The translations under genes were made by a program, and so were the position numbers. 64,000 nt of DNA from Cyanidioschyzon merolae (lineage: Eukaryota): NCBI GenBank assembly GCA_000091205.1, contig AP006492.2, one strand, 5' to 3'. The notes below the pieces were generated by a model. That model was not told the DNA's origin, did no database searches, and worked only from the letters and a program-made list of their open reading frames with translations. Of this stretch, positions 10,495-62,759 are shown in pieces (position 1 is the first letter of the stretch; each line of letters starts with the position of its first letter).

Positions 10495-10842
10495 TGCACC
10501 AGAATCGTGACAATGCGAGAGATGCTCGGCAGGCGCACATCCCGCGAGAAGCTTTCCCTAGCGTCCGATCAAGGCAAATCCTTTTCCTAAGCTTTATTCT
10601 GGTGCATCCGCGAAGCTGGGCATTGCACTCGAAGACACTGAGCCAAAGCCTGTTTACTTGAAAGCGCTTTGTCTGAATGAGGAACGGTTGCACTGCTTGG
10701 CAGGATTCGATTCGAGATACGATATTCCGGGCGCCTAATGACAGAGGTTTTTCGGAGCCTTTCGACCATGCGTAAAAATGACATGCGCTCGCGGACATGG
10801 TTTCGGGTACCAGCGCTGGCGTGCTGGCGTTTTAGTAAGCGC

Positions 10843-37544: not shown

Positions 37545-37835
37545 ATGGTCCTGATTACCTTAGAGTTTGGCGGTGGATTGGATGCAATTACAAGCGCCAA
37601 AGCCAAGACGGTTGCGTGTGATGTTCCGGCAAAGACGGTAGGCGAGTTAATTAGGTGGATTCGACGGCACCAAGTCCGAGAGCGACACGAGTTTTTCGCT
37701 TCGGGCGATGGCGTGCTTCGTCCGGGAGTTTTGGTGCTTGTCAACGAAGTCGACTGGGAGTTAGAGGGTAAAATGGAATACGTTTTACGGGAAGGAGATA
37801 CGATCGCGTTCATTTCGACGCTGCACGGTGGCTGA
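37545..37835 (+). CDS. URM1: Ubiquitin-related modifier 1
   Basis: 97 aa from the internal ATG of the track ORF (37410-37835): MVLITLEFGGGLDAI ... TVGELIRWI ... RPGVLVLVNEVDWELEGKMEYVLREGDTIAFISTLHGG, ending in the diagnostic C-terminal Gly-Gly. Confidence 0.85.
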   Translation: MVLITLEFGGGLDAITSAKAKTVACDVPAKTVGELIRWIRRHQVRERHEFFASGDGVLRPGVLVLVNEVDWELEGKMEYVLREGDTIAFISTLHGG

Positions 37836-40800
37836 TGCCCTCCGGGGTGTACCAAGTGTTCGCCCGGCAGGGCAACCGGCCTCGCGTTCGACCCATAGAC
37901 TCACAGGGCGCTCGTCGGCAACGAGCTCCGGCAGAGAGGTTTACGAACGTTGCATCCATAGACGCTCTGGGAACCCTACTGACCCTTTATGAATCGAAGT
38001 AGACTCTTGGGCGTTGCAACGCCGCGCTGGACCCAGAACTTCTGCATCAGGCTGTGGTGCCGTGCTTCGTGCCAGGGGTACCGATGATACCGTCCGAGGC
38101 ACGAAAGCCGAGTGCAAGTATCGCGTATTTAGGGCATTCGCATTCAATGCTCTGTGAACGTACTCAGACTCGTGCAACGTTGCACGGCCGTCCATCGCAA
38201 TGGGAGATGTGTATGCATGTATACGTGTCTATGTGCGCTTCGTTTACAAGCAACTGCACACAAGCCGCCCGCTAGCTGAGCAGGTCGACGCGATCGCTCT
38301 TCGAATCCTGAGTAACTTCATACAATGAAACACGATGATCGTCTACCAAATGCTCGAGAAAACTGTCCCCAGTGTTCGTATAAGGCGGTCCAGTCTTTGC
38401 GTTTTGCTGCAGCGTACCGTAACTGTGCCTTGCCCAAGGCGAGCATCCAACACATCCTCGACTGGCTACTGATTTTTTTCATCGAAAGTCTTGATCATTC
38501 CAGCTCAATTCCCACACTGAGGATGAAGCGATCCGTATGAAATTCCGCTTGACACAGTGCCGCTGGACGCTCCCAAAAGCGCGAGATATGCCCGGATGTT
38601 GATCGAGCCGCTCAAGTATCTGTGCACAAGGCACTGGCGCTTTTTCTTGTTGGTGGAATCACACCATAGCACGCCGCTCCCCGTACATCAATTCATACAT
38701 CGGTCTCTGTTCCACGCTCTGCGTTTCTATCTGTTTCAGCGGACACCTACGCTCGTTGTAGGTCTATGTCGCATTGAAAGCACCGATCGGAATCGTATCG
38801 AATCGTATCCTGCGATCGCTGTATGCTCTCGTCGAAGGATAACGAGCGCAGCCTTGGCGCGCTGCAGCACGTCCAGCGCCATAGGCTCCTATCAAATAAC
38901 ATGCCTTTTAGGCCAGTTCCTTTTCCACCACATGGAGCAAGTTATCGAATTTACGCTTCTTGTCTCTTTCGAAATGAAACCGTTGGTGATCCCAGCACGC
39001 TCTCATGCAGCCCCGCCAAAGATCGTCTGTCTCGGCCATTTCGACGCTCACGGACGGTCTCTTGCGTAGGATCTCTCCCACAAGTCACGATTTCAGGTCT
39101 AGAAAAGTGATGTTACAACGTGCACAGGGTGCGCTCCATGATGCGCTGGAGAATGACCCGTATACGCTTTTGTTTTTTGAGGTTGTTTTGATACCTGTTG
39201 GTACCTGCGCTATGGATTTTTTTCGACCAACAACGTCCCGCGGCTGCACTTCGAGATATTCCACAAACCATGTATGTAAATCTCCGATCCTGTGATCAAG
39301 CTGTTGTGCGTCTTACATTTCGCGCATCCGTTGTGTTGGCGCGGGAAAGCTTCATCGAAATATGGCAGAGGAATTTGGATAGCTGGCAGCCCCGCGGCTA
39401 TAACCCCTACCAACAGTTGCTCGACGATGTGCACCAAGGCGAGGGACGTCAGGCGAGCCTTCCTCAAAGAAGAAGCTACGCGATACCTGTTGGCGTCCTG
39501 CATTTCACTTTTTGTAAGACCTTCCCGTTCATGAGTTTTTGTCGCGAGGCCGTGATAGCGTTTTCATTCTGAACTTTCCCCACCAAGAGCGTTTTCTTCT
39601 GGTCATATCTTGACCTGTTTTCGGAAGAATCGTTTCTTTTATTGGCCTATGCTCTTGATCTTCATCTTTACTTGGTCGGGTGGCATGTATTTAGGCGCCA
39701 TCCTCCACTTCCGATCTTTCCTCGGAACTGAGGCACACTGGGTACATGGTAGCACTGACAAACGCCTTTTGTGCGGTAACGTCTGCGGCATCTTACGCAT
39801 CTTTTCGTCAGATGCTTCGCGAGCATGCCTTCGAGTCAAAGCACGTCTTTTCGCTGGCTCCCGCGCACGGGCAGCGGGGCAACACGGCAGTTCGCGGTTG
39901 GGAAAGTGGTAGAAATCGACCATGAAAAGAACGAATTGCGAAGGAGTCATGAACTCGAATGTCTCTTCCATTGAACCGCGAGTGTAAATACCGCATTCGA
40001 CAATGGAGCGAAGACGCATTCGGCAGGGTCAACCAGGGAGAACAGACTGGCACGAAGCGTAGCTGAACGCCAATTTCAACTGCGTATTCCCTGACAGCTT
40101 TGGTGTCAAGGTAATCGTTGTTTCATTGGAGCAGAAGAACGGAATTCGAGAGGGCAATTTCCCGAAATGCCTCGATGAATGATGCAATGAGGAACGATCT
40201 AGTCCACTACGTGATTTGCAGGCGACCACATTATAGTATTGGTGCTAGGGCTGACGTCGTCGTCAGGCTCGTTTGTCTCTTCTTGACGAACTGCGGTTTC
40301 ACCCTCTTGGAATGCTCATTCGCAGATCAACCATGTGGTCCGGGCCGAGACTTACCGAGTGAGGCGAATACGCTTCCCTCCTGTAACAGGAGTTCACGTT
40401 CCAGTGCGGATTCGGTCGTGTGTTGTTCAACGCGATACGGTGTCCAAGAGAGGTGTGTTTTTCTCTTTGTACGTATGTGTCTTTTCATGACATTTCGTAT
40501 CATGGGCGCGCAAACTTCACATTCTGAGCTTCTCAGGTATTATGTCTTAGTGACAAAACCGCGTGTAAGGTACTGGCGAGGAGACTGTCTTATCGATAGA
40601 GTCTAAGTTCCAATTTGAGTGCACGATGTTCCGAATGACGATTACCATGAAGGGTACTTGATCCACCTTTCGACCGCAGAGTATCTGATATATCGAAGCA
40701 AGGCCGCTTTGTCGCAAGGTAGCAGTAGCGGCATAAACTTTTTCCGCATCCTTGCTCCGATCTACAGGATGCATTCCTTTTACTGCGAATCTGTACGAAG

Positions 40801-41358
40801 AGCGAACGAAAACAAAAAGGGCGCGCAGGTGCGGGTGTTCCCGGATTCACTGTTCTGAGTATATCGAGTCATGCAATACATTGTCGATATCATCTGCTTT
40901 GACAGCGCTTGCTCGGCCGACTGGTATCCGACGTCATCTCAGAGTAGAAACATAGGTCGCAAAGACGCCTGGTACAATACTGGTCGCCCCGGCGGACACG
41001 CATCCATGCAAACCGCGCTTCCGCAGTGTACGGTCAGCAGCAGCAGCAGCAGCACCCAGGCGTCGTCGCTATCACTGCCGCTACTGATCGAGTCGCTACG
41101 GCCGCAGCTGGAGCCATGGCTCCTCCGATAACTGCGCCTGCTTCTCGGAGCAACATGTCAGCGCCTCCAGTCCATAAACAATACCGTGTGACCAGAACAA
41201 CGAGCTACACGATTCAGCGCCTCAGTGAGGGATCAGGACACCCTCGTGAGCGCGTCTTGATACATTGTGGGCCCACGACAGCTGCCAGCGATAGCCGTGG
41301 TGTTTTCCATATTTCTGCACTGGCGTTGACGATGCAGTGCTTCCTTCAGTGTCGCTCA

Positions 41359-47146: not shown

Positions 47147-48019
47147 CTACACGAGAAGTGTCTGCAAACTTGAAGCCCTCGGCAACGATGCCAGGTACTC
47201 TGCTTCGACAGCGTGCAAATCACCTGGCATGACCAGAGAATGGAGCGGTGGACCAAAATCTTTCCCGGAAAATTCCTTCAATGTACCGACCGCCATCAGC
47301 TCATCGACTTGTCCAACACGAGCGAGCCCAATACAAAGCGTATCCGAGTCATAGGCAAATGCTCCGGCTCCGGTTTCGTCCGTCTCGCGACCAAGCAGTT
47401 GGGCTCTCTCTCTCCACAGGGTAAGTAGCTGCTGTGCAGCATCAGCAATCGTCATGAAGCGAGGTGGTTCGAAAACCTTGACTCCTCGAGCCAAACTCTC
47501 CTCACTCGGTTCATGTACGCGAATATCCAGTAGGAAGAGGGTATGGAGGCCGCGGCGGCGATTCGCCTCGAGTTTCTCGTACCAGGAGGTCGGTCGCCAA
47601 GCGTTTGTCCAGAACACGAGGGAAATTGTCTCGCCAAATCGATAAAGCTGGAGTCCACACACTCCCACTGCGGTTAAGATGCTCGCGTTGAAGATGAAGC
47701 GGCACTCAACTCCGAGTTGCCGGGCTCGCAACACCAGGTCGTGATGCGTCGTTGCGCCGAAAACGTCACCAACTACGAGAAAGGCGACGTTTCCAGTCCT
47801 CGCTGGCTCCAGCAAACTCGATACATTTTCTTCAATCATTTCACGGTCAGCGATGGTGACTTTCTTTCCGTAGAGGTCTTCGAGCTGACCCAAGTCCGTT
47901 CGCAGGAGCGACGTGTAACCATCGAGAAAAACCCGATCACACGAGCGAACTGTTTCCAAGCCCCGCAGAGTTATGTCTCGCTCGTCTCCCAAACCCAAAC
48001 CTATGAAGTATAAGGGCAT
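47147..48019 (-). CDS. DPH5: Diphthine synthase (diphthamide biosynthesis methyltransferase)
   Basis: 290 aa, co-linear with DPH5: MPLYFIGLGLGDERDITLRGLE, NVAFLVVGDVFGATTHHDLVLRA, GLQLYRFGETISLVFWTNAWRPTSWYEK, GLHTLFLLDI, DTLCIGLARVG, FGPPLHSLVMPG. ATG at 48019. Confidence 0.9.
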   Translation of the reverse strand: MPLYFIGLGLGDERDITLRGLETVRSCDRVFLDGYTSLLRTDLGQLEDLYGKKVTIADREMIEENVSSLLEPARTGNVAFLVVGDVFGATTHHDLVLRARQLGVECRFIFNASILTAVGVCGLQLYRFGETISLVFWTNAWRPTSWYEKLEANRRRGLHTLFLLDIRVHEPSEESLARGVKVFEPPRFMTIADAAQQLLTLWRERAQLLGRETDETGAGAFAYDSDTLCIGLARVGQVDELMAVGTLKEFSGKDFGPPLHSLVMPGDLHAVEAEYLASLPRASSLQTLLV

Positions 48020-48169
48020 AACGGAGCCGAGGGTCCCAGACGCAGCCGGGTGGTTGATAAGCGACCGCAGCCTGCGGTTAGTGAGGCGCCAGCCAAACGC
48101 GTGGCAAACGAACCATGTTGACGCTCATGCTCGCTCTGTCCCTGTACCTCGATTTTCTACGGAGCTTTT

Positions 48170-48655
48170 CTTGGATGCAGAGCTTTGGCATTCGAAGTGC
48201 AGCTGTAAGAGCTCATGGATTCATGAGTAGTTTTTGGAGTTTCATTCGTGTTGTCGAAGTGGGTTGTTCGCCACTTTGCCACTGGAATTCGTGAAAGTAC
48301 CGAAATCATGCTGATTCACGACCATCTCGCAGAAGAGTTCCTAAACTCAACGATAGCATGATCCGATGTGTACATGAGAAAGCATCCACTCTTCTAATTT
48401 ACACACGAGTAGCATGCTCAAAATAGGCATTCTTCAAGTTTTCTTTCTGTCTGATTCAAGGCATGCGCGCCGCAGCGTTGGCGCGAAGCAAATCTCGACG
48501 TTGTCCCTTGAGGAATACCTGGCAAGCTCATGCTGCAAGTTCACAGAGCTTCTTTTGTCAAAGTCATCCGCTGCGTTCGAAATACGAATCTACCGTCCTG
48601 TTCGGTAATCGATGAAACTGTATTTGCTAGGATCATGACACCATGCACGAGGCTT
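48170..48655 (+). repeat. Dispersed repeat family B, copy 1 (about 0.5 kb, diverged)
   Basis: About 65-80% identical to 54550-55050 in direct orientation along its whole length. One shared block is ggcattcgaagtgcagctgtaagagctcatggattcatgag versus ggcattcggagtgcaacaataagggctcacggattcgtgcg. Another is cttctaatttacacacgagtagcatgctcaaaataggc versus cttctaattccattacgagtagcatgcataaatgacac. A third is ggatcatgacaccatgcacgagg versus taccatgatgcatctcacggg. Confidence 0.55.
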
Positions 48656-49894
48656 GCTCCCGGAAGCTCGGCTCTCTTCTGTTATGTTTGGATGGGAAAA
48701 CGGTTTCGGACTCGGACTTGAGTCATCACAGTGATCGTTTCCATTTGGACCGAGCTTCACTGCTTTGCACGAAGATTGCGAAGACAGATCGAAATCTCCT
48801 GACCTGATCTGGAGCCTGGATTTTCCTTCCAAGACTTGTTTCATGAAAACACCATCATCCATATCGTTCGACTGCTAGCAACGGAAATGGAGGCAAAGTA
48901 GAGACCGCGCTACCCAAATCCGAAGATGAGAGAGAAAGAGGACACGAAAGCAGTCACAGGAAAAGCTTTCGCAGAGTCGTCTAGAATGACATTGGGAAGA
49001 GACGCAAACTGTCATGTTTTATGCCCGAACTTGCTGTAAGTGAGCATTCCAGGTCGTGCTGGCACGTAGGTGTGGCGAACGAGCCGTTTCCGGAGTGTTT
49101 GTTTATCGTTGGAGACAGGCCGCGCCTTGTCGTCAACATGATTGTGTGCTGTCCGCAGCACGTGCGGGTTCCGGACTCGTTGCAACCTGCGAGTACGCTC
49201 GGATCTGACAGCTGCTTCTGGATAATGCACAGGCACTGAACGCTGGATCTTTTGTAGGTGAAAAGCTAACGGAAACAGGAAACAGGAGGTGCTGCGGTGC
49301 CCGTCTGGTACCGACGGCCTTGCACGTCGTCACCACAGGAATACCGGCCAGCGACGGTACTCTGAGAAGCGCGCGATCAATTGGAACTTACGCAATTCGT
49401 CTTCATTCGTGCAAGAGACAGTTTAACAGAGCGATCTTGGGACGCGCGCAAGCTTTTAGACTTTGGGGATGACGAGCTCCACTTCGTCTACTGGACCCAG
49501 AGTAGCGAGCGTGCAGGCAACTTGGCGACGGGCTCGAGTGTTCCTGTTCTGCGTTCCACCGCGTTTCGATTGTGTTTACTCCGCGGGATGCTCGCAAAAG
49601 AATACGACTACTCTTCGCGCGTCGGCTTTTAATCCGAGAACCCTCCGTAATCAGCACCCTAACCGGGTTCTTCGCTACAAGCGCCGCCCACAAAGTTGCG
49701 GCTATGTCTGGCACTCTGCTTCTGTCACCAATATGGCTGCATGGTGTAGGCACTGTCACCAGCATACTTCTCAGTGTAGACTTGATCGTTCCGAAGAGGG
49801 TGCAACGGATCGATCCAGGTCTCCGGTCACGGAATGGCGCGTCATGTATGCTCGTTGGACGCAGGGATCTTCCTGGATGCCCCAACTTCACATA

Positions 49895-50494
49895 ATGCTA
49901 CCGTTGCTGTTGGCGCTGTTCATGATAGACCTCCAGTTTATATTTCTGGCAGATGTGTCCTACGCACTCGAGCTGCCACCAGGATCCATGAGCGTCACAC
50001 GAGAGGAATCTGAAGAAAGCGGCACGAAGCAAACACAAACGCAACGTGTACGTAGCATCTTGGCGACGCTACAGCAAACCAAGTCCTGCATTCTCTGCGA
50101 CCTCAGCAGCGTTGATTTGAGCACAGCGGCTTTGGCTGGCGCGGACCTTCACGGTGCCGCGTTATCTCATGCGAACCTCTTCCAAGTCCAACTCTCAGGG
50201 GCGAACCTTCGCGGCGCCAAGTTCGATGCCTCGATCCTCGATGAGGCAGCCCTGGATGGTGCGGACCTCTCAGGCGCCGACCTGCGCCAGGCACTTGTTC
50301 GACGCACGCTTCTACTTGGGGCGCGTCTCGACGCAAACATTTCCATCGACGGGGCTGATTTTTCTGGAGCTCTCATTGATAGAACCAATCAGCGTCTGCT
50401 CTGCGAACTTGCACAAGGCGTGAATAGTCGCACCGGTGTAGCTACGGCGACGAGCCTTGCATGTCCGGAGCCAAAAACGAACCAGTCCCCATGA
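49895..50494 (+). CDS. Pentapeptide-repeat protein with N-terminal signal-like peptide
   Basis: The track ORF is 49463-50494 and starts at TTG. The C-terminal half is tandem pentapeptide repeats (ADLHGAALSHANLFQVQLSGANLRGAKFDASILDEAALDGADLSGADLRQAL ... ANISIDGADFSGALI). A hydrophobic signal-like segment MLPLLLALFMIDLQFIFLADVSYA begins at the in-frame ATG at about 49895. The family resembles thylakoid-lumen / secreted pentapeptide proteins. The start is approximate. Confidence 0.55.
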   Translation: MLPLLLALFMIDLQFIFLADVSYALELPPGSMSVTREESEESGTKQTQTQRVRSILATLQQTKSCILCDLSSVDLSTAALAGADLHGAALSHANLFQVQLSGANLRGAKFDASILDEAALDGADLSGADLRQALVRRTLLLGARLDANISIDGADFSGALIDRTNQRLLCELAQGVNSRTGVATATSLACPEPKTNQSP

Positions 50495-50900
50495 CCACAG
50501 ACTTTGTAGAGTTTCAAGCGCTCGCTCCGGGAAATTGCAAGGAGCGCGCTTCTTGTGTTTTTGCAGTTGCCCGTACCGCGCTTTAGCACGAACCCCGCTA
50601 GTCAGTAAATACGCAAGCAGCGGCACTGGAGACAGCGGTTGCACAGCTTGCCCAGTGCGTCCGCAACGTGCAGCGCTCCTGCGACACGCGGCTCTCCCTA
50701 TCACTTCATCTTACCCTCCTTAAAAACCACGTGCCGGCCAACGCGCGGATCGTACTTGATGACTGATAACTTGTAGGGAACGTTTCGCGGATTTTTTCGG
50801 GTAACATAAAAGTAACCGGTACCCGCCGCAGATACCAACTTGATCAGCACAGACTTGCCCTTGGCACCAGCCATGGCGGCTCTACGACACTTGCGCTCCT

Positions 50901-50933
<33 letters not shown>

Positions 50934-50937
50934 GTCA
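50901..50937. repeat. (CAG)n microsatellite
   Basis: gcagcagcagcagcagcagcagcagcagaagcag, about 400 bp upstream of the TauE-family gene. Confidence 0.8.
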
Positions 50938-51330
50938 AGCTACAAACCTGCGACAAGACGTTTGCGGGCAGAAGACCAGGTCGCTCAACACGCGCAGCGC
51001 GCTTTGCTCTCGTAGCACGAAGCGTCCGCACGTCCAACAGAGCCACTCGCAACGCCCAGTCGGTACCAGCAACCACGGATATACGTTCCAGCCGCTCTCC
51101 AGAGCGTTTCACGTCACCTGCGATGCAGTACGCCCTTGCCCCAGAGCATCGACGCTTCGTTGATCCAACGAATTTTCTGCGTGCGTGCGAGCCAGCAAGC
51201 GGCGCCTTCACAACATCGCCCCGTGCCTGCGCGCTCGTGCTGCGCAGGTATCCGCAGCGAATCTCAGGCCGCCGAATCGATCGACCTGATGGCGATGCAG
51301 GTACCGCCGCCGCCGCTGCGCTACAGATAC

Positions 51331-51457
51331 AGGCGCGCACACACACACGCTGAGACGTAGGCGCGCGCACACACACACACACGCTGAGACGTAGGCGCGC
51401 GCACACACACACACACGCTGAGACGTAGGCGCGCACACACACACACGCTGAGACGTA
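51331..51457. repeat. Minisatellite, 4 units of about 30 bp (aggcgcgc(gc)(ac)n gctgagacgt)
   Basis: Four head-to-tail units, each containing a (CA)5-8 core and the constant block gctgagacgtaggcgcgc. The array ends about 30 bp before the track ORF start and about 200 bp before the preferred ATG of the TauE gene. Confidence 0.85.
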
Positions 51458-51654
51458 GGCGCGCGCGTGCCTATTTTGCGACACATGCCATGGCTGTGGC
51501 ACGCGTAGCGGCTGCGCATGGCTGCCCTGGCTGCACACAGCGCTGCACCCGGCCTGGCAACGAATCGCAACAGGATCGGATTGGGTCTGTGCGCGCTATC
51601 ATTGATGTGCAGCGTGCGGTTACGTCTGCAAGCTTGCGTAGCTGTTTCGGGAAC

Positions 51655-54069
51655 ATGACGCAAGCAGGGACTTTAACTCGAAACAAACCAAAGGTTCGAC
51701 GTTGGCTACCTGTTACTGTTTGCCTCTTGCTTGTGCTGCTGCTGCTGCTGGGCGCAACACAACCAGCCGCCGCGGTGAACGCGTGCGACTACTGTGACGC
51801 GGTGGGTAAGGCGTGTAACGCCACGCTGGGCAAGTGCTACCGGTGTACGAGCTCCAAGGACTGTCCATCACGCAAAATATGTAACGTCGATATCGGTCAG
51901 TGTATAGTGGGAGGTGTTTTTTCAAACTTTGACTGGCAGGAGGGCGTTCTCATCTTGCTGGTATTTCTGGCGGCAGGGGTGTCGAACGCTGGGGGCGTAG
52001 GTGGCGGCCTCCTCTTCGTGCCGTTGCTGGTGCTGCTAGCCTCGTTTCCTATACCGCAGGCGAGTGCGAACTCACAGTCTCTGATCCTGGGTGCGTCTAT
52101 TGCGAACTCTGTGTACAACTTCCGGAAGCGGCACGTCATCCGCGACGCACCGCGCATCGACTGGAACTTGGTGATCAGCACGATGCCTTTCTTTCTCTGC
52201 GGCACAACGCCGGGATATTTTCTGAATATTTCGCTTCCCGGCTATTTCACGGGTTTCGTTTTGGCTGCGATGCTGGGAGCGCTCACCATCCAGAGCTTTC
52301 TCTCGGGTACGCGCATGACTCGCCGCCAATGGAGAATGCGACGCGAGTTTTTGCGCCAGGAGGCAGCAGGCAGCGCTCCGCTTGACGGCCCTGCAGCATC
52401 CAAACCGACTGCACCGACTGCGAGCGACGGTACCTCCGTCGTGCAACCCGGCATGCAACCAACGTCTACTGCGGTCGGCGAAGAGCGCCTGGATATCGAC
52501 TCGATCACTTCGCGTTTGCCGGGTCACCAGGATGGGTCTGCCCGCGACGGGGCATCGACAGCGTCGCTTGCTGGAGGAACACAACCGGGGAATGTGGAAG
52601 CTGGCGCTGTGAACATCCAGCACGACGTTGCTGGTTCTGGAAGCAGCAGCGGCCAGCAGCACGACCCGCAACTGGGCGAGCCTAGTCATCGGGCAGCGTC
52701 GCAAACGACGTTGACCGAGTCGACGGGAGCGAACGTCGTTCTGGCTTCATCTCAAGGCGATGTGCATCCGTCTGTCTTAGCATCGAATGCAACAGTAGCA
52801 GCAGCAGCAGAAGCACGTGGACCTGTGCATGCGCCGGAAGAGTTGCTACCTGCAGCGGGCGCTCTTCCTGAACAGAGACGCGACTTGGATCCATTGCCGA
52901 GATCTGTGCTTCAAGAGCGACTTGGACACGCGGCAGTGGACGGCCACCTGACGCACCGGAGTGACCGCAATGAACGCACGGCCATTTGGGTGGGCATGAA
53001 ACGCTCGGTCTCCTGCCAAGAGGAGGAGCTCGTCGGACGTCAGCACCGCAGCCGTGACGACTCCACGACATCCTGTTTACCTATGCGCGTGCGTGGTCGA
53101 CACTCGTGTTCGGGCGTGCTGCGTACCGCCTCACTCTACGAAGACCTGGCAGGGCTGTATACAGTCCATGTTGATGAGCCTTCGCCTCGCTCCAGATCCA
53201 AACTCGCAAGCGCCGAGCGTTCCGGCAGTTTCGTGGACCAACAGGCCGGCTCTTTCGAGTCAACTTCCAAACTGTATCGAGTTTGGCGTTTCGTGGACCC
53301 GGTTCTCGCGAGTCGAAACCTGGAAGAAATGCTTGCGGCAGAGCGTCCATGGTTTCCCTGGCGTCACATTCTGTTCGTTGTCATCCTCATCGCCATTCTC
53401 TTTGCAGGGCAGTTTCTCTCAGGGGCACCCTATGCCCGGTCACCGGTCGGTGTCCCGCTGTGCGGTGCTGTGTACTGGGTCATTTTCATGCTCCAAGAGC
53501 TGTCTCTGTTTGTCATTGGGCTGCTTACTGTATTCCGCAACATTCGGTTGCGACGGCTTCGCGCTGCCTACGGATACCCCTGGTTCGAGCATGACGGACT
53601 CACGGATATGCGCTGGGACGGTATGAACCTCTACGTCTATCCGGCATTTGTGCTGGTGATCGGCGCCATTGACTCGTGGACGGGTCTGAGCAGCAGCGCC
53701 CTCATCATCCCTTACCTCTACTTGATCGCGCGCACTGACCTCGTTACCGTCCAGTCGTCGATGGCTATTGTGAATCTGGTCGCGAGTCTGGCTGCCGCCA
53801 TGGTCTTCCTTGTTGACGGCCGCTTGAACATAAGCTACTCTTTGTTCTACGGGCTCTGGGCAATGTTGGGCAGTTACAGCGGTGTGTTCTTCGTTTACTA
53901 TCTCGTGGATCGCTTTCAGATCCGAGCATTCATCATTCTGGCTATTTCCATTGCTTTTTTTGCGGCATTTGCGATCGTACTATACGAGGCGGTCCATAAT
54001 GTGCTCGCAGCACGGGCAGCAAACGCCGGCTGGAAAATGGTGAACATCTGTGTGCCGACGTACCTGTAG
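51655..54069 (+). CDS. TauE/SafE (DUF81) family membrane permease with Cys-rich N-terminal domain and long disordered central region
   Basis: The ATG at 51655 gives a signal peptide (WLPVTVCLLLVLLLLLGATQPAAAVNA) followed by an 8-Cys module (CDYCDAVGKACNATLGKCYRCTSSKDCPSRKICNVDIGQC). The first TauE half then follows (GVSNAGGVGGGLLFVPLLVLLASFPIPQASANSQSLILGASIANSVYN), then about 330 aa of Ser/Ala/Gly-rich linker, then the second TauE half (ALIIPYLYLIARTDLVTVQSSMAIVNLVASLAAAMVFLVDG ... GLWAMLGSYSGVFFV). The track ORF starts at 51490. Confidence 0.7.
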   Translation: MTQAGTLTRNKPKVRRWLPVTVCLLLVLLLLLGATQPAAAVNACDYCDAVGKACNATLGKCYRCTSSKDCPSRKICNVDIGQCIVGGVFSNFDWQEGVLILLVFLAAGVSNAGGVGGGLLFVPLLVLLASFPIPQASANSQSLILGASIANSVYNFRKRHVIRDAPRIDWNLVISTMPFFLCGTTPGYFLNISLPGYFTGFVLAAMLGALTIQSFLSGTRMTRRQWRMRREFLRQEAAGSAPLDGPAASKPTAPTASDGTSVVQPGMQPTSTAVGEERLDIDSITSRLPGHQDGSARDGASTASLAGGTQPGNVEAGAVNIQHDVAGSGSSSGQQHDPQLGEPSHRAASQTTLTESTGANVVLASSQGDVHPSVLASNATVAAAAEARGPVHAPEELLPAAGALPEQRRDLDPLPRSVLQERLGHAAVDGHLTHRSDRNERTAIWVGMKRSVSCQEEELVGRQHRSRDDSTTSCLPMRVRGRHSCSGVLRTASLYEDLAGLYTVHVDEPSPRSRSKLASAERSGSFVDQQAGSFESTSKLYRVWRFVDPVLASRNLEEMLAAERPWFPWRHILFVVILIAILFAGQFLSGAPYARSPVGVPLCGAVYWVIFMLQELSLFVIGLLTVFRNIRLRRLRAAYGYPWFEHDGLTDMRWDGMNLYVYPAFVLVIGAIDSWTGLSSSALIIPYLYLIARTDLVTVQSSMAIVNLVASLAAAMVFLVDGRLNISYSLFYGLWAMLGSYSGVFFVYYLVDRFQIRAFIILAISIAFFAAFAIVLYEAVHNVLAARAANAGWKMVNICVPTYL

Positions 54070-54549
54070 TATTTCATGAACGAACTAGTCGAAACATGAC
54101 CATGGCAGGTGCGCGCGTCGAGCGCCATTCAAGCAGAGAGCGCTTCGCTGGTGCAGGCGTCGCCCGAGGTCGCCAGCGAGCCAGTGATGCATCTGAACGA
54201 GCGGCAAACTGGCGTGCTTGTCAAGTCGAGCACAACGCTGCCTCTGTCGCATGCACCAGCGGCTGCGTCACATGCATCGTGCGTAGCGGTCTGCAGCTTT
54301 CTCTTCCAAGAAGCTGGATGCGAGTCGAGGCACTCCGGAATAGATGCATCCCCAAGCCGCGCTCGTGACGCGCTGACAATCATGATTTCAGTGCAGTCCG
54401 AGTACAACAGTGCGCGCTCGAGTTGCACTCGGTGCGCTCGACATGGATCCAGTGTCGTCTGCGGATGCTACACCAGTGTCAGGTTGAAATGGAGCGCTGA
54501 ACCACGAGAAGTAATCTAGCATTTCGATAGTCCTCACTCAAATTTGAGA

Positions 54550-55050
54550 TCTGGAGCATCGGCATTCGGAGTGCAACAATAAGGGCTCACGGATTCGTGC
54601 GCAGTATCGGGATAGCCGGCTGTTGGTTTTTCGGACTGTCTTCTTCGACGCTTTAAAGCTGAAAGTCGTAGTGTCTGCGGAATCAACGTCATTCGCGATA
54701 TGATCTTGGACAAGGCTTCGTAATATCACTGATATTATGATCCAGTGCGTCCATACAAGAATCTATTCTTCTAATTCCATTACGAGTAGCATGCATAAAT
54801 GACACATGCTTCCAGGTTTTCGACGACCATTCCATTTCATGGGCAATGCATGAGCGCTGCGATTCGTGTCCCAGTACTGATGATGACGACAAGAACTCGG
54901 TTTCTTCCATTGAAGATTTGATAAGACGTTCATGCCGAAAGTGCACTGAACTTGTTACGTGAAAGAATCGATTCCGCTCGACTGGCGTATCCTGCACGGT
55001 TTGTCGTCAGTTATGAAACAATAGTCGAAAGTACCATGATGCATCTCACG
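54550..55050 (+). repeat. Dispersed repeat family B, copy 2
   Basis: See copy 1 (48170-48655). It lies in the lower-GC block downstream of the TauE gene stop. Confidence 0.55.
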
Positions 55051-57540
55051 GGACGTGATCTCAGAGGCAACCGTCTCCGCTGTTTGCATGGAAAGAGGGC
55101 GTGGACGCGGACTTTGGTTATCGCATCGATACCCTTCAGTGAAGCGTGTGTCAATGCATCGCACGAAGGAAGCGCAGTCAAATCGTAAGCTCTCGACTTT
55201 TTCTCCATCCTGGATTTTTTTGCTTCTAGTGCCAGTCTCATCCTAAACGAACGATGTGTGCCGCAAATGCCCTATAGAATGGAGAAGTATGCACTCGTGC
55301 GTACGGCGGACAGCGCACTCCCCAGGCGGTATCGCTCAGCAGTAGTCCGTCATCGTAGGGTGCGGCACCGAGCCCGGATACGGAGAAGTCATCAAGAACG
55401 AGCCCTTTGTATCTCTCAGCGGCAAATCTTGTGAGCGATGAAGAAAAGCCTCACGCGCCACAGTGCGGCGCTCGGACGAGGATATGTGGCGGATGCGTCT
55501 AGAAAACACTGACCATCGTCATGTTTTTCTGCTGCTGCAATCGGCGCTCCGAGGCTGCATCAATGCAATATGACGTGGCAAGCGAAGCGTGAGTCGCAAC
55601 GATATGCTTTGCATGAAATGAGTCAACATTTGCCTCACGCGGTGAAATTGGAATTGTCTTGTTCTCGTCAACGTCTTGCAACTGCTTATAACGTAGCGGG
55701 AGGAGAAACAAAACTCGCTGTATCGAGAGCGGAGCACAAGAGAGCGAGAACGAAAGCAAACATCCGCCAAGACTAGTATTGAATGATAGCGGTTGTCGAC
55801 CCAAACTTTGGTATCTAGTTCGGAATTAGCTGGGCTGGACCTGTTCCCTTCAAGTCTGGCATAAAGCCGTAACCGGATACGCTGTGCGAGCGTTCTTGCG
55901 CCTGCCATGGACAACCTCGAAGGGCGTCCACATCACCACAATCCTCCGAATAAACGAAGCATGTCTTGTTGGCGCACAGTGCGAAACCTTCATGATATTT
56001 TGCTCCGCAGCGAATTTGACCCAGCTGAAGTGCATGGATAGCCCTAGAGGCGTCGGCAACAAGATGCACGTCTGCGGTTGGTTCGCTGCTCCAAGTCCAG
56101 CAGCGTCTGGGCACGTTCTTTTGCAGTTGCGTATTCTGCTCGAGCGCCCGACACTCATGCAGCGCTCGGGGTTATTGTCGATGCTTCGTGACCAACGGCG
56201 CTTTCCTTACCAGACTGGCGCATCCGCTGCGGTATGATATCCAGGTAAATGGCAGCGACATTCGAGTAGCAACGCACGATTTGCAAAGCCGCTTTCGGAA
56301 TCATCTCGATTATATTCGATAATGGAACACCATTGTCGATCATTGATCGACCGGGGAAATGGTAAGCGGTGTGTGTGTGTGTGTGTATGTATTGGTGCGG
56401 GGCTTTAGCGTTGCTCCTTTGCTGAGCATACCATGCCAATGTTCCGCTCCAGACGAGAATTCAGTGTCACTTCTCCTGGCCTCTGATTCGTTTTCTTGCA
56501 AGTCTGTAGCGTTCCAGTGCGATGCCTCTAGTGAGTCACCTACGATGTCCTGGAACATTCGCGCACCTCAGAGCAGTTGGACGCGGCGGAAGCGCGACAA
56601 GCGGTAGCATAGTATTCGGGGCGTTCAAGCCTCGGTGCAGATTGTGCTAGCGCAAAGTTTTCCCGGGAAATAACACACGAGAGCGAGCATCATACCCTGG
56701 ATGACCTTGTCATGTGATGTTCTGTCAGTGAATTGTCGAACATGTCGCGCATTCGCCTCTGTTTCAAATGTTGCTTGTCTACCGATTTCAGAGAGCACCT
56801 GTGCCCATGTTGCGTGTTTGTCGTCCGGAATGCATCGATGCGAGAACTGGACCATCGAGGCTGGCGCTGGTTGCGCGGTCTCCTCGACACAGAGGGTGTG
56901 TAGTCATCGCGCGCTACAGCACATCCAGCCCCGCAGGATACCACCAAATGATGCGACTTGTCGGTGAGATCCTTTTCCAACTCATTAAAATCGTCGGTGG
57001 ATGCACGCTTCTTGTCTCCGTGCAACCGCAACTTGTGCTACTCTGGCGCGGTCTCAGGTATTTCAGCCAAACATCGTTGATACGAGTTATTTGGACGGTC
57101 CTGTAAGCTCCCTGAATGAAGCGTAGAGAGCGACGCCATCCGTGCTGGAAACGGTGCTGAGAGCTTCGAGGTGCCGCCTGATACCTGTATTCCAGTTATT
57201 GGCACGCCGTTTGGTGCTCACGATTCCTGACTTGCGATAATACCCATTCCTGAAGAAGCTGAGAAGTTTCATCTGATTTCCGTTCAGGTCTCCGGCGCCG
57301 TGCTTTTGATTCAGAGTTATGGCGACGGACAAGACGTCCTTCGACAAGGGATCCACATTCATCACGGGGTACTCCTGCTCAGTTACCTTGAAATGTTAGA
57401 CATGCGTCCGTCGGTCGGCTCTGGTCTAGGTATCACGGAATGCATGCAGATTGATATTCCGTCCGACTCCATCGTACCTGTAAACTTCTTTGCTTTTCTC
57501 ACTATGAAGAAGATTCCTTGAAGGAGTTCCTCTAATGCCG

Positions 57541-59749
57541 TTGGTGAAGACGTTCGAGTGCTTCATACTTGTGTGCAGAGACCAGTGGTAGCCCACTGAG
57601 GAGGCCAATCAGCACAGGACAACATTGTCTGCGGAGTTGTACTGGGTCTCGATGTGCCGTATGGGAAATACATCGAATAGATCCCCGAGGAAGTTGGGCG
57701 CTCGAATCCAGGAACCAAGTCTGCTTTGCTTAGGAGCGCTCAGTGCAGGGAATCTCAGAAGCGCAGTATTCGAAAAAGGCATGTATCCCGTTTCAAACAT
57801 GCTTCGGATACGAGTTCCGTGTACTTGATTCCGAGAGCAACGCCATGAGCTTGGACGATCGGAAGCGAACTCGCTTCCACTGCGACATCTGTTCCGTACT
57901 CGCGAGCTCCTCGATCGTCTCCGCAGTCACCAGCTCGTCGTTGACCGTCATCGATACTCCGCGAATGCCGTTTATCAGTCCCAACTTAACTGGGACAGTA
58001 CGTTGAGCGCGCAACGCCTCCAGTGTACGCTGCACGAACCAATCGACGGTGACCAGCATATGGTTTATGAGGCTGGTATGATGCTTTTGGGCACCTGCTC
58101 TGTAGACACTCCGGTTACCGACGTGTCGCGCCAATGCCTCCAGGTATTCTGGGAAGTGTGTATGTGTGCGACGCTCTAATCCGACGATCATGCGGTATGT
58201 CGTCTTCTGTCTGGAGCATCAGCTGTGTTGTCGCATGCTGGTTTGGTCTAGGTATGCGAGAGGAAGGTCGGTAGCCAGCTGTTCCGACACCGGAACTCCT
58301 ACAAGCAACTGCTTGATGCGGTGCGTCCTCGCGAGCGGAGCCAGGCACGACATTCTCGAGTATAGAGCGACGTGATCCCCACTGGCGTCTTGCATTGCAC
58401 TTTTTGAGAAATTATTCCTGGTGAGGAGTTTTGTTAGGCAGGCCTCGACAGTGATTTCAGAGTACTGTTTCCGCGTAAACCGTTCCTCCTGTCGATCTTT
58501 GCTTGGTGTCGTTTCGCGAGGATTTTTCTCTTCTTTGTTCAGGAGTTTCCTCGCCTTCTCATGACTTGGCGGGCTAGCATGGATACTAACGCACTACTCC
58601 GTATCCTTTATTCCGCAGTATTCAGATCCAATACGTAGACGTGGACACTGAAACTCGCCTGTTCTTCGTTTGTTTCTCCCATTCCTCAACTACCTCTTCG
58701 TCACCTGGTCCGGGTCGACCACGTCCGTGGACCGAAGCGCGCCGTTCCGCTTTCTCCCGCGTACGAGCAGCGAACCAGCACTGCAATGCACGGCAGGTGA
58801 ATGTGTAGAACCAGTCGACGCAGAGGGGTTCGTCGAAAAACCGTATCACAGATACGAATGACTCATCCATAGAAGCATGAGCTTGAATATGGCATTCGAA
58901 AAGGAGAACACGCCTCGGACTCGATTGAACTAGGGAGAAGATGCTAGCACGAAGAAGTGCTCAACACGAATCGCTGATGCGAACCGCTTCAGCGCATTTG
59001 AGTGATCGGAGTCCATGGTATCTACGAACAAGACACAAGAATCTGGCGAGCACAAGTCACAAAGCGCGTCAACGAAGAATGCGGTGTTGAACAATTCAGC
59101 CCTTGCAACAATTCGTAGGCGAACACACCATAAAATCGTTGTTTGGGCTGGTGTTGTCGTCACGCTCGCTTGCCTCTGCTTGACGAACAGCGGTCTTTCC
59201 CGTGTTAGGTACCGGTATTCAAGGCTAGCATTTCCCTAGGCAAGTCTCACCGAAAATGAAGAGCTCCCATACCTCCTGTTGAGAGCATTCGCATTTCAGT
59301 GCGAAATCCATTCTGTGACGTTCAGCAAGTGACGATCTCCCGTAGACGCGCACTTTTGTCTTTGTCCATTTGCGACTCTTCATCACCGTTCGAATCAGTG
59401 GTGCAGAGCTTTCACATCCTGTGTATTCTCTAATCGTTTTTCTTAGACAGCAAATGGATTGGAATGCACTGACGAAGAGACAATCGTGTAGATCGTATTC
59501 GACAAGCTGCGTTTCGGGTGCGCTCTGTCTACACTAAGCACTACGACAAGGGCAGTTCATTCACTGGCTGACCGTAGAAAGCGTGGCTTGAACAACGAAG
59601 GTCGTTGTTCTCGCAAGCTAATCATGGCGGCATCAACTCCTTCCGCGAACTTTCTCCAATCCACAGAACACTAGACTTTAATTGAATACCGGGGAGAAAA
59701 CCAGACAAGAACAAAACCAGCATGCTGGTTCACGTCTTCCAGCGTGCAC
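57541..59749 (-). repeat. Right copy of the approximately 2.2 kb inverted repeat (IR-R)
   Basis: Reverse complement of 10843-13052. All small track ORFs in IR-L reappear here on the opposite strand with 0-4 aa differences (for example 11430-11663 versus 58930-59163, and 12402-12800 versus 57793-58191). The outer end lies 102 bp downstream of the NDUFV1 stop. Confidence 0.85.
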
Positions 59750-59850
59750 TCCTCTGAGCATAACATGCGAACCTCCATACTCGCCATGCGCCGTGATACC
59801 ACGTCAGCCTTGCATCTGCGAATCGCTGGCGGCGGAAATAGTTTCCGCGG

Positions 59851-61338
59851 TTAAGCGGTGGCCACGCTGGCACCAGCACCGTTCTGTTGTGCCTCCTGTC
59901 GAATTCGTTCTGCCTCTCGAATGCGACGCTCAAGCTCCGGTCGGAAATGCCGAATAAGCCCCTGCACGGGCCAGGCTGCAGCATCACCCAGCGCACAGAT
60001 CGTATGACCCTCGATGTTCTTCGTGACCTCATACAACATATCGATTTCCTCGATTCGGGCATCGCCTTTCTCCATGCGACACAGCATTCGATGGAGCCAA
60101 CCGGTGCCCTCACGACACGGGGTGCACTGGCCGCATGACTCGTGCTGGTAGAAATAGGAGATGCGTCGAATCGCCGCAACGATATCTGTTGAACGATCCA
60201 TCACGATGACTGCAGCAGTGCCCAGGCCACTGCCAACCTCTTTCAGAGCGTCAAAGTCCATCATCACATCATCACAGATGTCCTTGGGCAGCAATGGAAC
60301 CGAACTACCACCGGGAATGACAGCGAGCAGGTTCTCCCAGCCGCCGCGTACGCCACCAGCATGGCGCTCGATAAGCGTCCGCAGGGGAATGCTCATCTCC
60401 TCTTCGACCACGCAGGGGTTATTCACATGCCCGCTTATGATGAAGAGTTTGGTGCCGCAGTTATTCTTACGACCGAGCGAGGCAAACCAGGAGCTGCCCC
60501 GACGTAGAATGGTAGGCACCACTGCCACGGTCTCCGTGTTGGTGACGGTGGTAGGACACCCGTACAAACCAATATTCGCGGGAAAGGGCGGTTTCAAGCG
60601 CGGCTTGCCTTGTTTTCCTTCCAGCGATTCCAGGAGTGCAGTTTCCTCACCACAAATATACGCCCCAGCTCCATGATGCACGTACACATCAAAGTCGTAG
60701 CCACTGCCACATGCGTTTCGACCAATGAGACCCTTTTGGTAGGCTTCTTGGACTGCGCGCTCTAACTGTTTACGCTCGTAGACGTACTCGCCGCGAATGT
60801 AGGCGTAGGCTGCGCGAGCACCCATGGAAACACCGACCAAAAGCATGCCCTCCACGAGTTTATGCGGATCATGGCGCATGATTTCGCGGTCTTTCGCAGT
60901 TCCAGGCTCCGACTCGTCACAGTTTACGACGAGATAGTTAGGTCGGCCGTCCGGATTCTGACGAGGCATGAACGAGTACTTGAGCCCGGTGGGGAATCCG
61001 GCACCTCCCCGCCCTCGTAGACCGCTGGCTTTGATCTCGTTGATGATCCAATCGCGACCTTTCAAAACCAGGTCTTTGGTACGGTACCAGTCGCCTCGCT
61101 TGAGTGCGCCATCTAGGAAAGCATCTCGTTCACCATACAAGTTTGTGAAGATTCGATCCTGGTCCTTCAACAAGCCATAGCTACGCTCGGCGTTCGACGC
61201 CCGCCACGTTTCCGGTTTCGGGGCTGGAGCTCCAGTTGCAACGCTGCTGGAAGAACGCAGCGTTGTGAACACGCCAACCAGCCAGCGTGTTCTCTTATGC
61301 ACCACACGCTGTAAGCTTCCACGAACAGCACCTTGCAT
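59851..61338 (-). CDS. NDUFV1: NADH dehydrogenase [ubiquinone] flavoprotein 1, 51-kDa subunit of mitochondrial complex I (nuclear-encoded)
   Basis: Co-linear with NuoF/NDUFV1: [19 protein letters not shown] (NADH site), [48 protein letters not shown] (FMN site), [16 protein letters not shown] (4Fe-4S cysteines), [19 protein letters not shown]. The track ORF begins at GTG 61461; the first ATG is at 61338 and gives an arginine-rich presequence. Confidence 0.9.
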
Positions 61339-62759
61339 GGGAAGCACTACACGGGAAACTGCTGGGAGCACAGTTTGGTACTGAAGAAAAACACCTCGAC
61401 GCTGGAGCAGTGGCGGAGAGCGGAGTGGTGTTGTCGGCGCCGTTGCACCGAGCGCGTTCACCCGATAACAAATCGCTTGCGGGTGCTTTACAGGGCTGTT
61501 GTCTGCTGGGGTGCGTATGACGCTGGCGTGGGTGCGGATCGTACGGAATTGAGTGCCTGAGGAAGTAGCAACTCGATGATGGATTCTTTCGACTTTCCCA
61601 TTAATCTTTGGAAGGAGGCGACGCTTTGCGTATCATCGAAAGTTTGGCTTCTTAGCAGAAATTCTCGTTAAGCGGATGAGTCTGCCGGTTTCGTGCCTCA
61701 TGCTCCCTGCTCCAGTGGCGGTTGCTATGACGAGACACGAGCAGTTTTTCTACAAAGCAGTCTTACTCTGGGACTAGGAGCGGTCAAGTTGCATCCAGAA
61801 GTCGTCCTGGTCGCGGTGGTCTGCTGGTGTATCGCTTCGCGTAGTCGCAGGCAGGGGGTGTATCTGCGCAGTCTCCGGGCTTCCAGCTTGATAACGAATC
61901 CCGAGCTTGTGCCGGGTGAACCACGTGTCGAGCCGACGCCTTTCGGGGTATGATAATGCCTTGCTGTCTATATGCTATGTCCGCATCGGCGTTATAGGTG
62001 CTTTTACGGGGCTTATGGCTGGTTCGGTGCACGGTGGATCATAGGCAATGATTCGTACATGTGAAAGGAGGTATCGGGAGCAGAGCCTGACCCTAGCATC
62101 AAGCATGATGGACGTTTTTGCGATGACGGATATCCACCGCGCAATCCTGGATCCCTGCTTCATGTAATCCTCCAGTCGAACAAGAACGAGGATCGCATGT
62201 TTGCATTTTTTGACGTCAGAAGGATCAATGATCCTAGACCGCAAAGAAATTGGGCGAAAGCATTCGTCTCTAGGATCAGGTGCACACACGTCTCAGATGA
62301 GAGACAAACTAGAGGTTTTCTGGGGGATTTTCGCGCGCGCTGGTCAGGCGTGCGCATCATGGGATGATAGGGTGTAAGAAAAACCATGTTTGATCCATTT
62401 TTTCTCATTTGAATGCCGGGAGCCTGCATCATGGATCAGGCGCATACAAGCACTCGAGACAGGGAGCGCATACGGCAACGCGTCTCTCTCGGTTACATCG
62501 ATTTGTCCGGTATCCGCAGCGGTGCACTGCAGCACACCAATGGGGGTGTCGAATGCGCATATCCCGCCATTCGCCCTGATTCCCGTCATGAAAGTGCACA
62601 GCTCGTACTCAATCGCTCCAGGTGCTTTGCAGCTGCTTCTTCATAGGAGCGGTGCGTGGTTCGTGGAACGCGCGCAACCTGCGCGTTCCGACGCTCACTG
62701 CACGTTCAAAACCTGGTGAACGCTGCGCAGAGAGGCTCGCGAATGCCGGTCGTGTTCAT

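Follow-up and report, generated by a model that had tools for sequence, protein, structure and literature searches.

Why do two intergenic blocks with unrelated surroundings resemble each other? The question arose in a 64,000-nucleotide stretch of DNA (here called the window), in which a sequence-only reading had picked out two direct copies of a unit of roughly 0.5 kb, at 48170-48655 and 54550-55050 (copies A and B), with an identity given as about 70%. Three explanations had been offered: an old non-autonomous mobile element family, a conserved non-coding RNA gene family, or a shared cis-regulatory module. The window is chromosomal DNA of Cyanidioschyzon merolae 10D, and the DPH5 protein encoded beside copy A is identical to BAM80304.1 of that strain. 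We conclude that the blocks are parts of a family that is very probably a decayed class II transposon. The family most likely arose by deletion from a mariner-type element with Fanzor1, as a non-autonomous derivative that spread in one burst and decayed neutrally.

The two blocks are members of a dispersed family

Local alignment of 47600-49400 with 54000-55800 gave a score of 119, whereas 30 shuffles averaged 13.7 and reached at most 18. The two stretches are therefore alike beyond chance and homologous. The best local alignment paired 48180-48824 with 54554-55218 at 66% identity (631 aligned bases). Within the blocks as first delimited, identity was likewise 66%, over 467 aligned bases, so that the homology stood and the figure of about 70% did not. 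Other parts of the original description were borne out: both blocks have a lower GC content (0.49 to 0.52 versus about 0.55 for the window), neither copy holds a convincing ORF, and the flanking DNA is unrelated between the copies, with different adjacent genes. Both copies are real, but the window holds five, in both orientations; copies C, D, and E were found with nhmmer at E values of 1e-35 to 1e-56. The true unit measures about 1.37 kb rather than 0.5 kb, with copy B reaching 55861 and copy A spanning 48102-49064. The "conserved islands" proved to be nothing special, as conservation is nearly uniform along the element.

Six further copies were present in approximately 86 kb of independent metagenome DNA that also comes from C. 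merolae (loci L005, L007, L010, and L012). This gives a total of 11 copies in about 150 kb, or roughly 1 per 14 kb, an abundance estimate that may be biased because the sampled DNA was picked around Fanzor genes. A scan of the metagenome with an exact degenerate DNA pattern was dropped, as no 24-column window was conserved enough.

Copy B (54477-55861, plus strand) is full length (1,385 bp) and 74% identical to the family consensus. The core of its left terminal inverted repeat (TIR; 54477-54495) reads TGTCAGGTTGAAATGGAGC, a decayed form of the consensus TGTCAGATTAAAATGGAAC, and the right core (55842-55861) reads ...GTTCCCTTCAAGTCTGGCA. Between them lies a region derived from an IS630/Tc1-mariner transposase (54609-55329, plus strand), which begins with a helix-turn-helix, continues through the first two catalytic Asp motifs, ends at a "YSP" motif, and is now riddled with stops and frameshifts. 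It is followed by a region (55349-55811, plus strand) that stems from a Fanzor1/TnpB-like gene and covers its C-terminal ~140 residues, with a GYGxG motif, the RuvC-II Glu region, a C4 zinc ribbon, and the RuvC-III motif "NRDxNAA." Copy C (35121-36480, plus strand; 1,360 bp), copy D (23189-24544, minus strand; 1,356 bp), and copy E (16529-17863, minus strand; 1,335 bp) are also full length. Copy D lies directly upstream of a CNNM-type transporter gene, and the left end of copy E adjoins a 3' fragment of the C. merolae Fanzor1 repeat CMe-1A (17917-18248).

Measured from one inverted repeat to the other, copy A (plus strand) is 963 bp long, with about 400 bp deleted internally. Sequence from the transposase gene forms the proximal part (48102-48850), and the distal part (48852-49064) consists of the Fanzor 3' end followed by the element's right end; the distal 240 bp (48852-49096) match positions 399-640 of a hidden Markov model (HMM) of the distal half (nhmmer E value of 1.5e-22). 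The start codon of DPH5 is at 48019, with the left end of the copy 82 bp upstream of it.

A consensus restores inverted repeats and two domain remnants

A consensus of five copies was too noisy for an ORF, and 8 to 11 copies were required. The ancestral unit reconstructed from them is about 1,372 bp long and is flanked by inverted repeats of approximately 27 bp. At 24 of 27 positions, TACACCCGTGTCAGATTAAAATGGAAC at the left end matches the reverse-complemented right end, TACATCCATGTCAGAATAAAATGGAAC, with a pairing score of 21 (2,000 shuffles: mean, 7.3; maximum, 15). A search of the consensus for such repeats had been proposed as a check. The TIR core, TGTCAGAWTAAAATGGAAC, is visible in most copies and also appears in the search tool's own consensus. 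An exact-seed inverted-repeat search on single copies recovered no TIR, as these are too decayed, and only the consensus shows the repeat clearly. Inspection of the sequence flanking 19 ends showed that T(A/G) recurs 7 to 8 bases outside TGTCAG. The outer TIR boundary is fuzzy, and no matching target-site duplication could be read at these ends, nor could the TA duplication that is the hallmark of mariner elements be demonstrated there.

The translated consensus matched the Pfam family DDE_3 (PF13358) with an E value of 1e-8 and 35.1 to 35.7 bits, above the curated cutoff of 28.6. It also matched the NCBIfam IS630 transposase profile NF033545 over positions 20-260 of 299 (E value of 1.4e-14), with a score of 54 bits that is below the NCBIfam naming cutoff of 100 bits. 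An N-terminal helix-turn-helix and the motifs RILGRLFGVAPSTLCRW, FVAIDETAF, and FIMDNIAFHKS are all recognizable. The DDE_3 match ends at position 117 of 146, and the region of the third catalytic residue is missing. Every copy bears stops and frameshifts. No intact or full-length parent or homologue was found, the protein search giving only three decayed ORFs, and a phmmer search of the consensus peptides against PDB sequences gave no meaningful match. The disrupted frames in all copies, the profile match that stops short, and the failure to find an intact homologue together indicate that the family is a non-autonomous relic.

The last third of the consensus corresponds to the zinc-ribbon/RuvC segment at the C terminus of a Fanzor1 (TnpB-like) protein. 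It reads TTVKC-HRC...(27 aa)...CMKC-VDNSRKQRN-RD and fits the Fanzor motif of Bao and Jurka (2013), [TS][TS]-X-X-C4-X(5,50)-RD (PMC3627910). The match to Pfam PF07282 had an E value of 6.4e-5 and 23.5 bits, under the gathering score of 26.3. BLASTP aligned this part with residues 539-679 of the CMe-1 Fanzor protein (E value of 4e-4; 24% identity over 143 residues), and an hhalign comparison with a profile built from seven Fanzor1 proteins gave a probability of 89% and an E value of 2.3e-6 over 136 columns. This last match starts at profile column 538 of 744, so that the nuclease is incomplete, lacking the RuvC-I Asp and the N-terminal two-thirds; the sequence upstream of it is derived from the transposase. 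The two remnants are co-oriented, and about 40 bp separate the end of the Fanzor remnant from the right inverted repeat.

The copies decayed independently and uniformly

Each copy is 70 to 75% identical to the consensus, and pairs of copies are about equally distant, at approximately 60 to 66% identity. Column conservation is close to that of a uniform-rate star model (variance of 1.69 versus 1.50). There was no coding signal in comparisons of the copies: tblastx scores were similar in all six frames, mismatches lacked a 3-base periodicity, phase rates were flat, and indels were not multiples of three. We considered a live small gene on either strand, for which a conserved reverse-strand ATG and ORFs of 158, 158, and 207 amino acids looked promising. 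The idea was ruled out, as the ORF frames differ between copies, single ORFs had no Pfam hit, and codon periodicity was absent. A profile built from the ORFs found only their own orthologues. The 158-amino-acid ORF of copy C (35316-35792) preserves part of the transposase frame, and that of copy E (17194-17670) falls in this frame as well.

Differences between strains gave conflicting signals. Copies A and B alone had 4.7 to 6.4 differences per kb versus 7.9 to 9.6 in other intergenic DNA, whereas copy F had 14.8 per kb versus 5.3 around it. Pooled over the available copies, the family had 37 differences in 5.1 kb and other intergenic DNA had 75 in 13.1 kb. With this null result, purifying selection was rejected as a reading of the strain polymorphism.

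Origin of the family and competing explanations

Of the three explanations first offered, the old non-autonomous mobile element is the correct one. The copies are dispersed in both orientations, carry a TIR and remnants of a transposase and a Fanzor, and show star-like uniform decay. This reading is also backed by two independent internal-deletion variants keeping both ends, with different break points: copy A lacks HMM positions 767-1159 and the L005 copy lacks positions 951-1148, the distal end being kept in both and the left end of the L005 copy being cut off by the end of the locus. A 5'-truncated retroelement was excluded once copy A was shown to be internally deleted with both ends kept.

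The parent would have been a larger mariner-type transposon with a transposase and a captured Fanzor1 gene. Mariner elements that combine Fanzor1 with a mariner transposase are known in other eukaryotes, where Fanzor1-only relatives share their inverted repeats (PMC3627910). Deletion of the middle of the parent probably produced a non-autonomous element that retained both ends, in which the first two-thirds would represent a 3'-truncated IS630/Tc1-mariner transposase gene and the last third the 3' end of Fanzor1. The derivative was probably mobilized in trans in one old burst, mostly into intergenic DNA, and neutral decay, independent in each copy, would then have brought identity with the master down to about 73%. 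Such a level implies approximately 60 to 66% identity between any two copies. The further loss of about 400 bp from copy A would be a later event.

The junction of the two remnants could also have arisen by nesting or template switching, with an IS630-like element that never held a whole Fanzor capturing a Fanzor 3' fragment. No full-length parent was found, the window has many nested or abutting Fanzor fragments (such as the CMe-1A 3' fragment at copy E), and Bao and Jurka note that Fanzor is frequent in chimeric elements (PMC3627910), all of which fit such a capture. The co-orientation of the remnants and the end of the Fanzor part about 40 bp from the right TIR, however, match the layout seen in known mariner-Fanzor elements and in CMe-1A, whose stop codon lies 59 bp from the element end. 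A single deletion is also the simpler explanation, and we regard a chimeric master as unlikely. At three places an older Fanzor1 pseudogene ("family 1") has a copy near its 3' side, at a distance of 0.4 to 2.9 kb and with the relative orientation the same each time. A single 5- to 7-kb composite element was nevertheless rejected: the spacers lack homology to each other, the host gene Urm1 (37557-37847) intervenes once, and the only "family 1" fragment in the new loci is oppositely oriented, with an aldehyde dehydrogenase gene in between.

The remaining two explanations assign a function to the copies. One is co-option of the transposon-derived copies as a shared promoter or other cis-regulatory module, in which the left end would provide a promoter or 5' leader. 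In 9 of 10 copies the left end does face a gene's 5' end, with transcription leading away from the copy (for example, DPH5 at 82 bp, an aldehyde dehydrogenase gene at 171 bp, and Gar1 at 534 bp), and copies A and B have somewhat fewer strain differences than other intergenic DNA. Most sites, however, lie between divergent genes, where either orientation would face a 5' end, and copy B lies between convergent genes. Only four sites are in tandem genes, and although all four have the expected orientation (P of approximately 0.06), the informative cases are too few for an orientation bias relative to genes to be accepted. The adjacent genes are functionally unrelated, the left end contains no conserved block amid the uniform decay, and the pooled polymorphism is not below that of other intergenic DNA, with copy F being more polymorphic than its surroundings. 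We found no positive support for the shared module that had been suggested and consider co-option quite improbable. A family of long non-coding or structured RNA genes is harder still to credit, and this reading is largely refuted. In its favor, Nozaki et al. (2007) report transcription of C. merolae interspersed repeats, and RNAalifold gave z-scores below -3 in 3 of 32 windows. These low z-scores result from energies near zero: the consensus energies ranged from about 0 to -4 kcal/mol per 160-nucleotide window on both strands, which indicates no conserved structure. The Rfam scan that had been proposed returned no hits in the window at gathering thresholds. RNA genes would also have to be reconciled with uniform substitution and no deficit of polymorphism, and they leave the domain remnants and the TIR of the consensus unexplained.

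Relation to known elements

The closest counterparts of the family are the Tc1/mariner elements with Fanzor1 PUl-1, PGv-1, and PUl-4 (PMC3627910), which have similar inverted repeats of about 24 to 33 bp. Shared features also include a mariner/IS630-type transposase at the 5' side, a same-strand Fanzor1 at the 3' side ending near the right end, and the existence of derivatives without part of the coding capacity. In contrast to those elements, both genes here are truncated at one junction, the copies differ from the consensus by about 26%, and the TA target-site duplication could not be read (19 ends). The published elements are listed with 1 to 8 copies, and the C. merolae family is far commoner; no such mariner-Fanzor element was reported for C. 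merolae by Bao and Jurka (PMC3627910).

Within C. merolae, the Fanzor1 repeats CMe-1A and TE-N2_CMe resemble the family in host genome, age, and Fanzor1-related C-terminal sequence. Their copies are about 80% identical to the consensus, and no target-site duplication was established for them either. They are probably what Nozaki et al. (2007) described as a "253-copy WSV486-like interspersed repeat." Unlike the present family, CMe-1A is 3,169 bp long and has neither inverted repeats nor a transposase remnant. Membership of the family in CMe-1A/TE-N2_CMe was rejected, as the CMe-1A consensus matched none of the five copies with nhmmer or blastn. CMe-1A fragments occur elsewhere in the window, at 2308-3173, 17917-18248, and 61563-62173.

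Bacterial IS630 insertion sequences provide the best profile match of the transposase remnant and have a similar size (about 1.1 to 1.4 kb) and short inverted repeats. The family differs from them in its eukaryotic nuclear host, its score below the naming cutoff, and its Fanzor-derived 3' third. Nozaki et al. (2007) described eight C. merolae "class II elements" weakly similar to bacterial transposases, and these may be the best-preserved members of the present family.

Implications for the C. merolae genome

An unexplained pair of conserved non-coding sequences has thus become ordinary transposon debris. At about 60% pairwise identity, the copies seem non-coding in every pairwise test, and only a multicopy consensus restores the ancestral genes. 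The C. merolae genome is cited as the simplest of any free-living eukaryote, with 34 transposon-related elements making up 0.7% of its length. If the sampled density holds genome-wide, the family would comprise several hundred to about a thousand copies and several percent of the genome, and it would explain part of the surprisingly long intergenic regions. In a red alga, the consensus also connects what is left of a Fanzor1 gene with an IS630/Tc1-mariner vehicle; the Fanzor1 repeats already known from C. merolae had been left unclassified, having no inverted repeats and no target-site duplication.

In Fanzor elements, the guide (omega) RNA normally comes from the 3' end of the Fanzor gene together with the right end of the element, and C. 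merolae retains intact CMe-1 Fanzor1 genes. Since the derivative kept the Fanzor 3' end and the right end while intact CMe-1 genes persist, one could speculate that the copies once were, or still are, a genome-wide reservoir of guide RNAs or homing targets for a Fanzor nuclease. The region matching the guide RNA locus is kept in the family, and RNAalifold found no conserved structure there (-4 kcal/mol or weaker). We give this idea very little credence; if true, it would connect RNA-guided cleavage with a mariner-type vehicle in a red alga. A modest version is likelier than such a reservoir, namely, that one family makes up several percent of the C. merolae genome and supplies the missing transposon class for red-algal Fanzor1.

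Copies of the repeat in the window

To characterize the repeat, we aligned 47600-49400 locally with 54000-55800. The sequence-only reading had described two direct copies of about 0.5 kb (48170-48655 and 54550-55050) at about 70% identity in lower-GC intergenic blocks. The alignment covered 48180-48824 and 54554-55218 and scored 119, whereas 30 shuffles averaged 13.7 and never exceeded 18, and the GC content of both blocks was below the window average. The two stretches are therefore homologous, with 66% identity over both the full alignment (631 aligned bases) and the originally described intervals (467 aligned bases).

Using either stretch (here copies A and B) as the query, blastn and nhmmer found five copies in the window. 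The extra copies lay near 17.1-17.8 kb (-), 23.8-24.5 kb (-), and 35.2-35.9 kb (+), with E values of 1e-35 to 1e-56. Self-comparison of the window extended the shared sequence to about 1.3 kb in four copies. As 48852-49096 matches the distal half of the family profile (E = 1.5e-22), copy A is a full element lacking about 400 bp internally and not a short element. With the inverted repeats at both ends as limits, the copies extend over 48102-49064 (A), 54477-55861 (B), 35121-36480 (C), 23189-24544 (D, minus strand), and 16529-17863 (E, minus strand). The pair was thus a true repeat, with more copies, a longer unit, and somewhat lower identity than first described.

The genes beside the five copies (DPH5, a CNNM-type transporter, a proteasome subunit, and TauE) are mutually unrelated. 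The DPH5 protein encoded beside copy A has the same sequence as BAM80304.1 of Cyanidioschyzon merolae 10D, and the window is 99.1 to 99.3% identical to hot-spring metagenome contigs. Between the convergent TauE gene and a gene at 59851-61461 (-), the 5.8 kb at 54070-59850 contain no ORF of at least 150 amino acids, unusually long for a compact, intron-poor genome; nearly all of it is copy B plus one Fanzor1 pseudogene. Just upstream of TauE, a CA-rich 34-bp unit is tandemly repeated (51338-51466; 3.9 copies, 92% matches), and a (GCA)11 microsatellite lies at 50901-50934.

Consensus ends and gene remnants

We built a 1,372-bp consensus from 8 to 11 copies. At its ends, TACACCCGTGTCAGATTAAAATGGAAC pairs with the reverse complement of the other end, TACATCCATGTCAGAATAAAATGGAAC, at 24 of 27 positions (score of 21; maximum of 15 in 2,000 shuffles). 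The inverted repeat was not found in single copies, which are too decayed, and no target-site duplication was readable at the copy ends. Open frames on both consensus strands were longer than in 95% of shuffles, with the longest exceeding all 200 of 200. The forward translation contains a transposase remnant (RILGRLFGVAPSTLCRW, FVAIDETAF, FIMDNIAFHKS, and YSPSGSP) that matched Pfam DDE_3 (35 bits; E = 1e-8; curated cutoff, 28.6). It also matched the NCBIfam "IS630 family transposase" model over profile positions 20 to 260 of 299 (E = 1.4e-14), a statistically significant score but below the curated naming threshold. The final third of the translation, VIVGYGTGRG...VVDI*KNLTTVKCHRCKG...LCMKCVDNSRKQRNRDCNAAISIL, carries the [TS][TS]-X-X-C4-X(5,50)-RD signature of TnpB/Fanzor. 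This remnant matched Pfam PF07282 significantly but under the curated threshold (E = 6.4e-5), residues 539 to 679 of the CMe-1 Fanzor by BLASTP (E = 4e-4), and a seven-protein Fanzor1 profile by hhalign (probability, 89%; E = 2.3e-6). A single junction at consensus position ~840-855 (55329-55349 in copy B) truncates both gene remnants.

Comparisons between individual copies gave no coding signal: tblastx scores were similar in all six frames, mismatch rates were flat across the three codon phases, and indels were not multiples of three. Neutral decay from one master would explain this lack of signal in pairwise tests, as the copies would have diverged only once inserted. The longest ORFs (158 amino acids in C and in E, 207 in D) do not all share one frame. 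They had no significant Pfam match, and when 5.8 billion proteins were searched with a profile built from those of C and E, nothing beyond the orthologues of these ORFs was recovered; the two are leftover stretches of the transposase frame.

Origin and alternative explanations

On the simplest reading, the A-E family is non-autonomous and descends by deletion from a Fanzor1-carrying mariner/IS630-type transposon. The derivative would have arisen from such a parent, amplified once, and decayed since. Mariner/IS630-type transposons with Fanzor1 have been described in oomycetes, in algal viruses, and in other organisms (Bao & Jurka 2013, PMC3627910); a search for an intact parent element found none. 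All copy pairs are about equally distant, and each copy is 70 to 75% identical to the consensus. Conservation across columns approximates a uniform-rate star model (138 invariant columns versus 92 expected; variance, 1.69 versus 1.50). These patterns fit neutral decay from one master.

The sequence-only reading had offered a mobile element, a noncoding RNA gene family, and a shared cis-regulatory module as explanations. The inverted repeat and the transposase and Fanzor remnants show the first to be right. An RNA family is not supported: RNAalifold consensus energies in 160-nt windows on both strands were only 0 to -4 kcal/mol, and the Rfam scan proposed in that reading had no match in the window. 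Strain differences in copies A and B (4.7 to 6.4 per kb) were lower than in other intergenic DNA (7.9 to 9.6; coding, 3 to 4), as they were in copy K (0.7 versus 1.9), a further family member; copy F, another, had 14.8 versus 5.3. Pooled values were 7.2 per kb for the family and 5.7 for other intergenic DNA, giving no evidence of constraint and arguing against a regulatory module. Nine of 10 copies have their left (transposase-side) end directed at the 5' end of a gene. With just four copies lying between tandem genes, the informative setting, this trend is not significant. The similarity between A and B is a genuine repeat, ordinary transposon debris.

Relation to known repeats

Nozaki et al. 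(2007) described in C. merolae a transcribed interspersed repeat of ~3.2 kb (253 copies; truncated WSSV WSV486-like ORF), 26 retroelement-like elements, and 8 transposase-like elements. Bao & Jurka (2013, PMC3627910) identified TE-N2_CMe and the Fanzor1 family CMe-1A (3,169 bp; ~150 copies, ~80% identical to the consensus; without inverted repeats). None of the five copies is hit by the CMe-1A consensus given in their supplement, so the A-E family is not CMe-1A. That consensus does match a copy with an internal deletion and a further 5' fragment behind it (2308-3173, plus strand), a 3' fragment (17917-18248, minus strand) whose projected end is within ~20 bp of the left end of copy E, and ~600 bp of the 5', TE-N2_CMe-like region (61563-62173, minus strand; 69% identical). 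A full-text literature search found no description of the A-E family, which may already be deposited in Repbase.

More distant CMe-1A matches correspond to three Fanzor1 pseudogenes (family 1) at 10802-13611 (+), 38280-40898 (-), and 56308-59798 (-). They show 24 to 33% identity to the CMe-1 Fanzor protein over residues 13 to 697 (tblastn) and may belong to an older family of Fanzor1 separate from CMe-1A. An A-E copy lies 0.4 to 2.9 kb from the 3' side of each pseudogene, with the same relative orientation every time; in one case the host gene Urm1 (37557-37847) separates the two. This may be simple clustering of repeats in permissive intergenic DNA. Two of the pseudogenes contain inverted 2,245-bp segments (10829-13073 and 57520-59764), ~44 kb apart and 98.5% identical. 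Their remainders are ~58 to 60% identical to each other, as is the third copy. This pattern points either to old repeats that recently underwent duplication or gene conversion with each other or to a younger element nested in both.

Abundance

Other genome regions were reached in metagenome contigs of the same species through the CMe-1 Fanzor protein (loci L005 to L012). As in the window, the search for further copies suggested by the sequence-only reading enlarged the family: the profile found six more, at L005 1837-3161, L005 21677-20711 (internal deletion with break points unlike those of copy A; left end lost at the locus end), L007 16483-17836, L007 2338-987, L010 13548-12663 (partial), and L012 9746-11098. 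Between two strains (L005 9000-12000 versus L006), the CMe-1 Fanzor1 ORF region differs by a ~75- to 150-bp tandem duplication and by ~15 differences per kb, well above adjoining genes, suggesting ongoing turnover or misassembly of this repeat. Downstream of a DEAD_2 helicase gene, L005 15659-16013 holds three ~119-bp tandem repeats, each called as a 38-amino-acid ORF; the L006 contig stops inside the first.

The total of 11 copies in ~150 kb comes from a sample skewed to Fanzor-containing regions; if it is representative, the genome would hold between several hundred and roughly a thousand copies. The A-E family is of interest because it ties a mariner-type vehicle to Fanzor1 and because it is abundant in a genome with a reputation for being nearly transposon-free.
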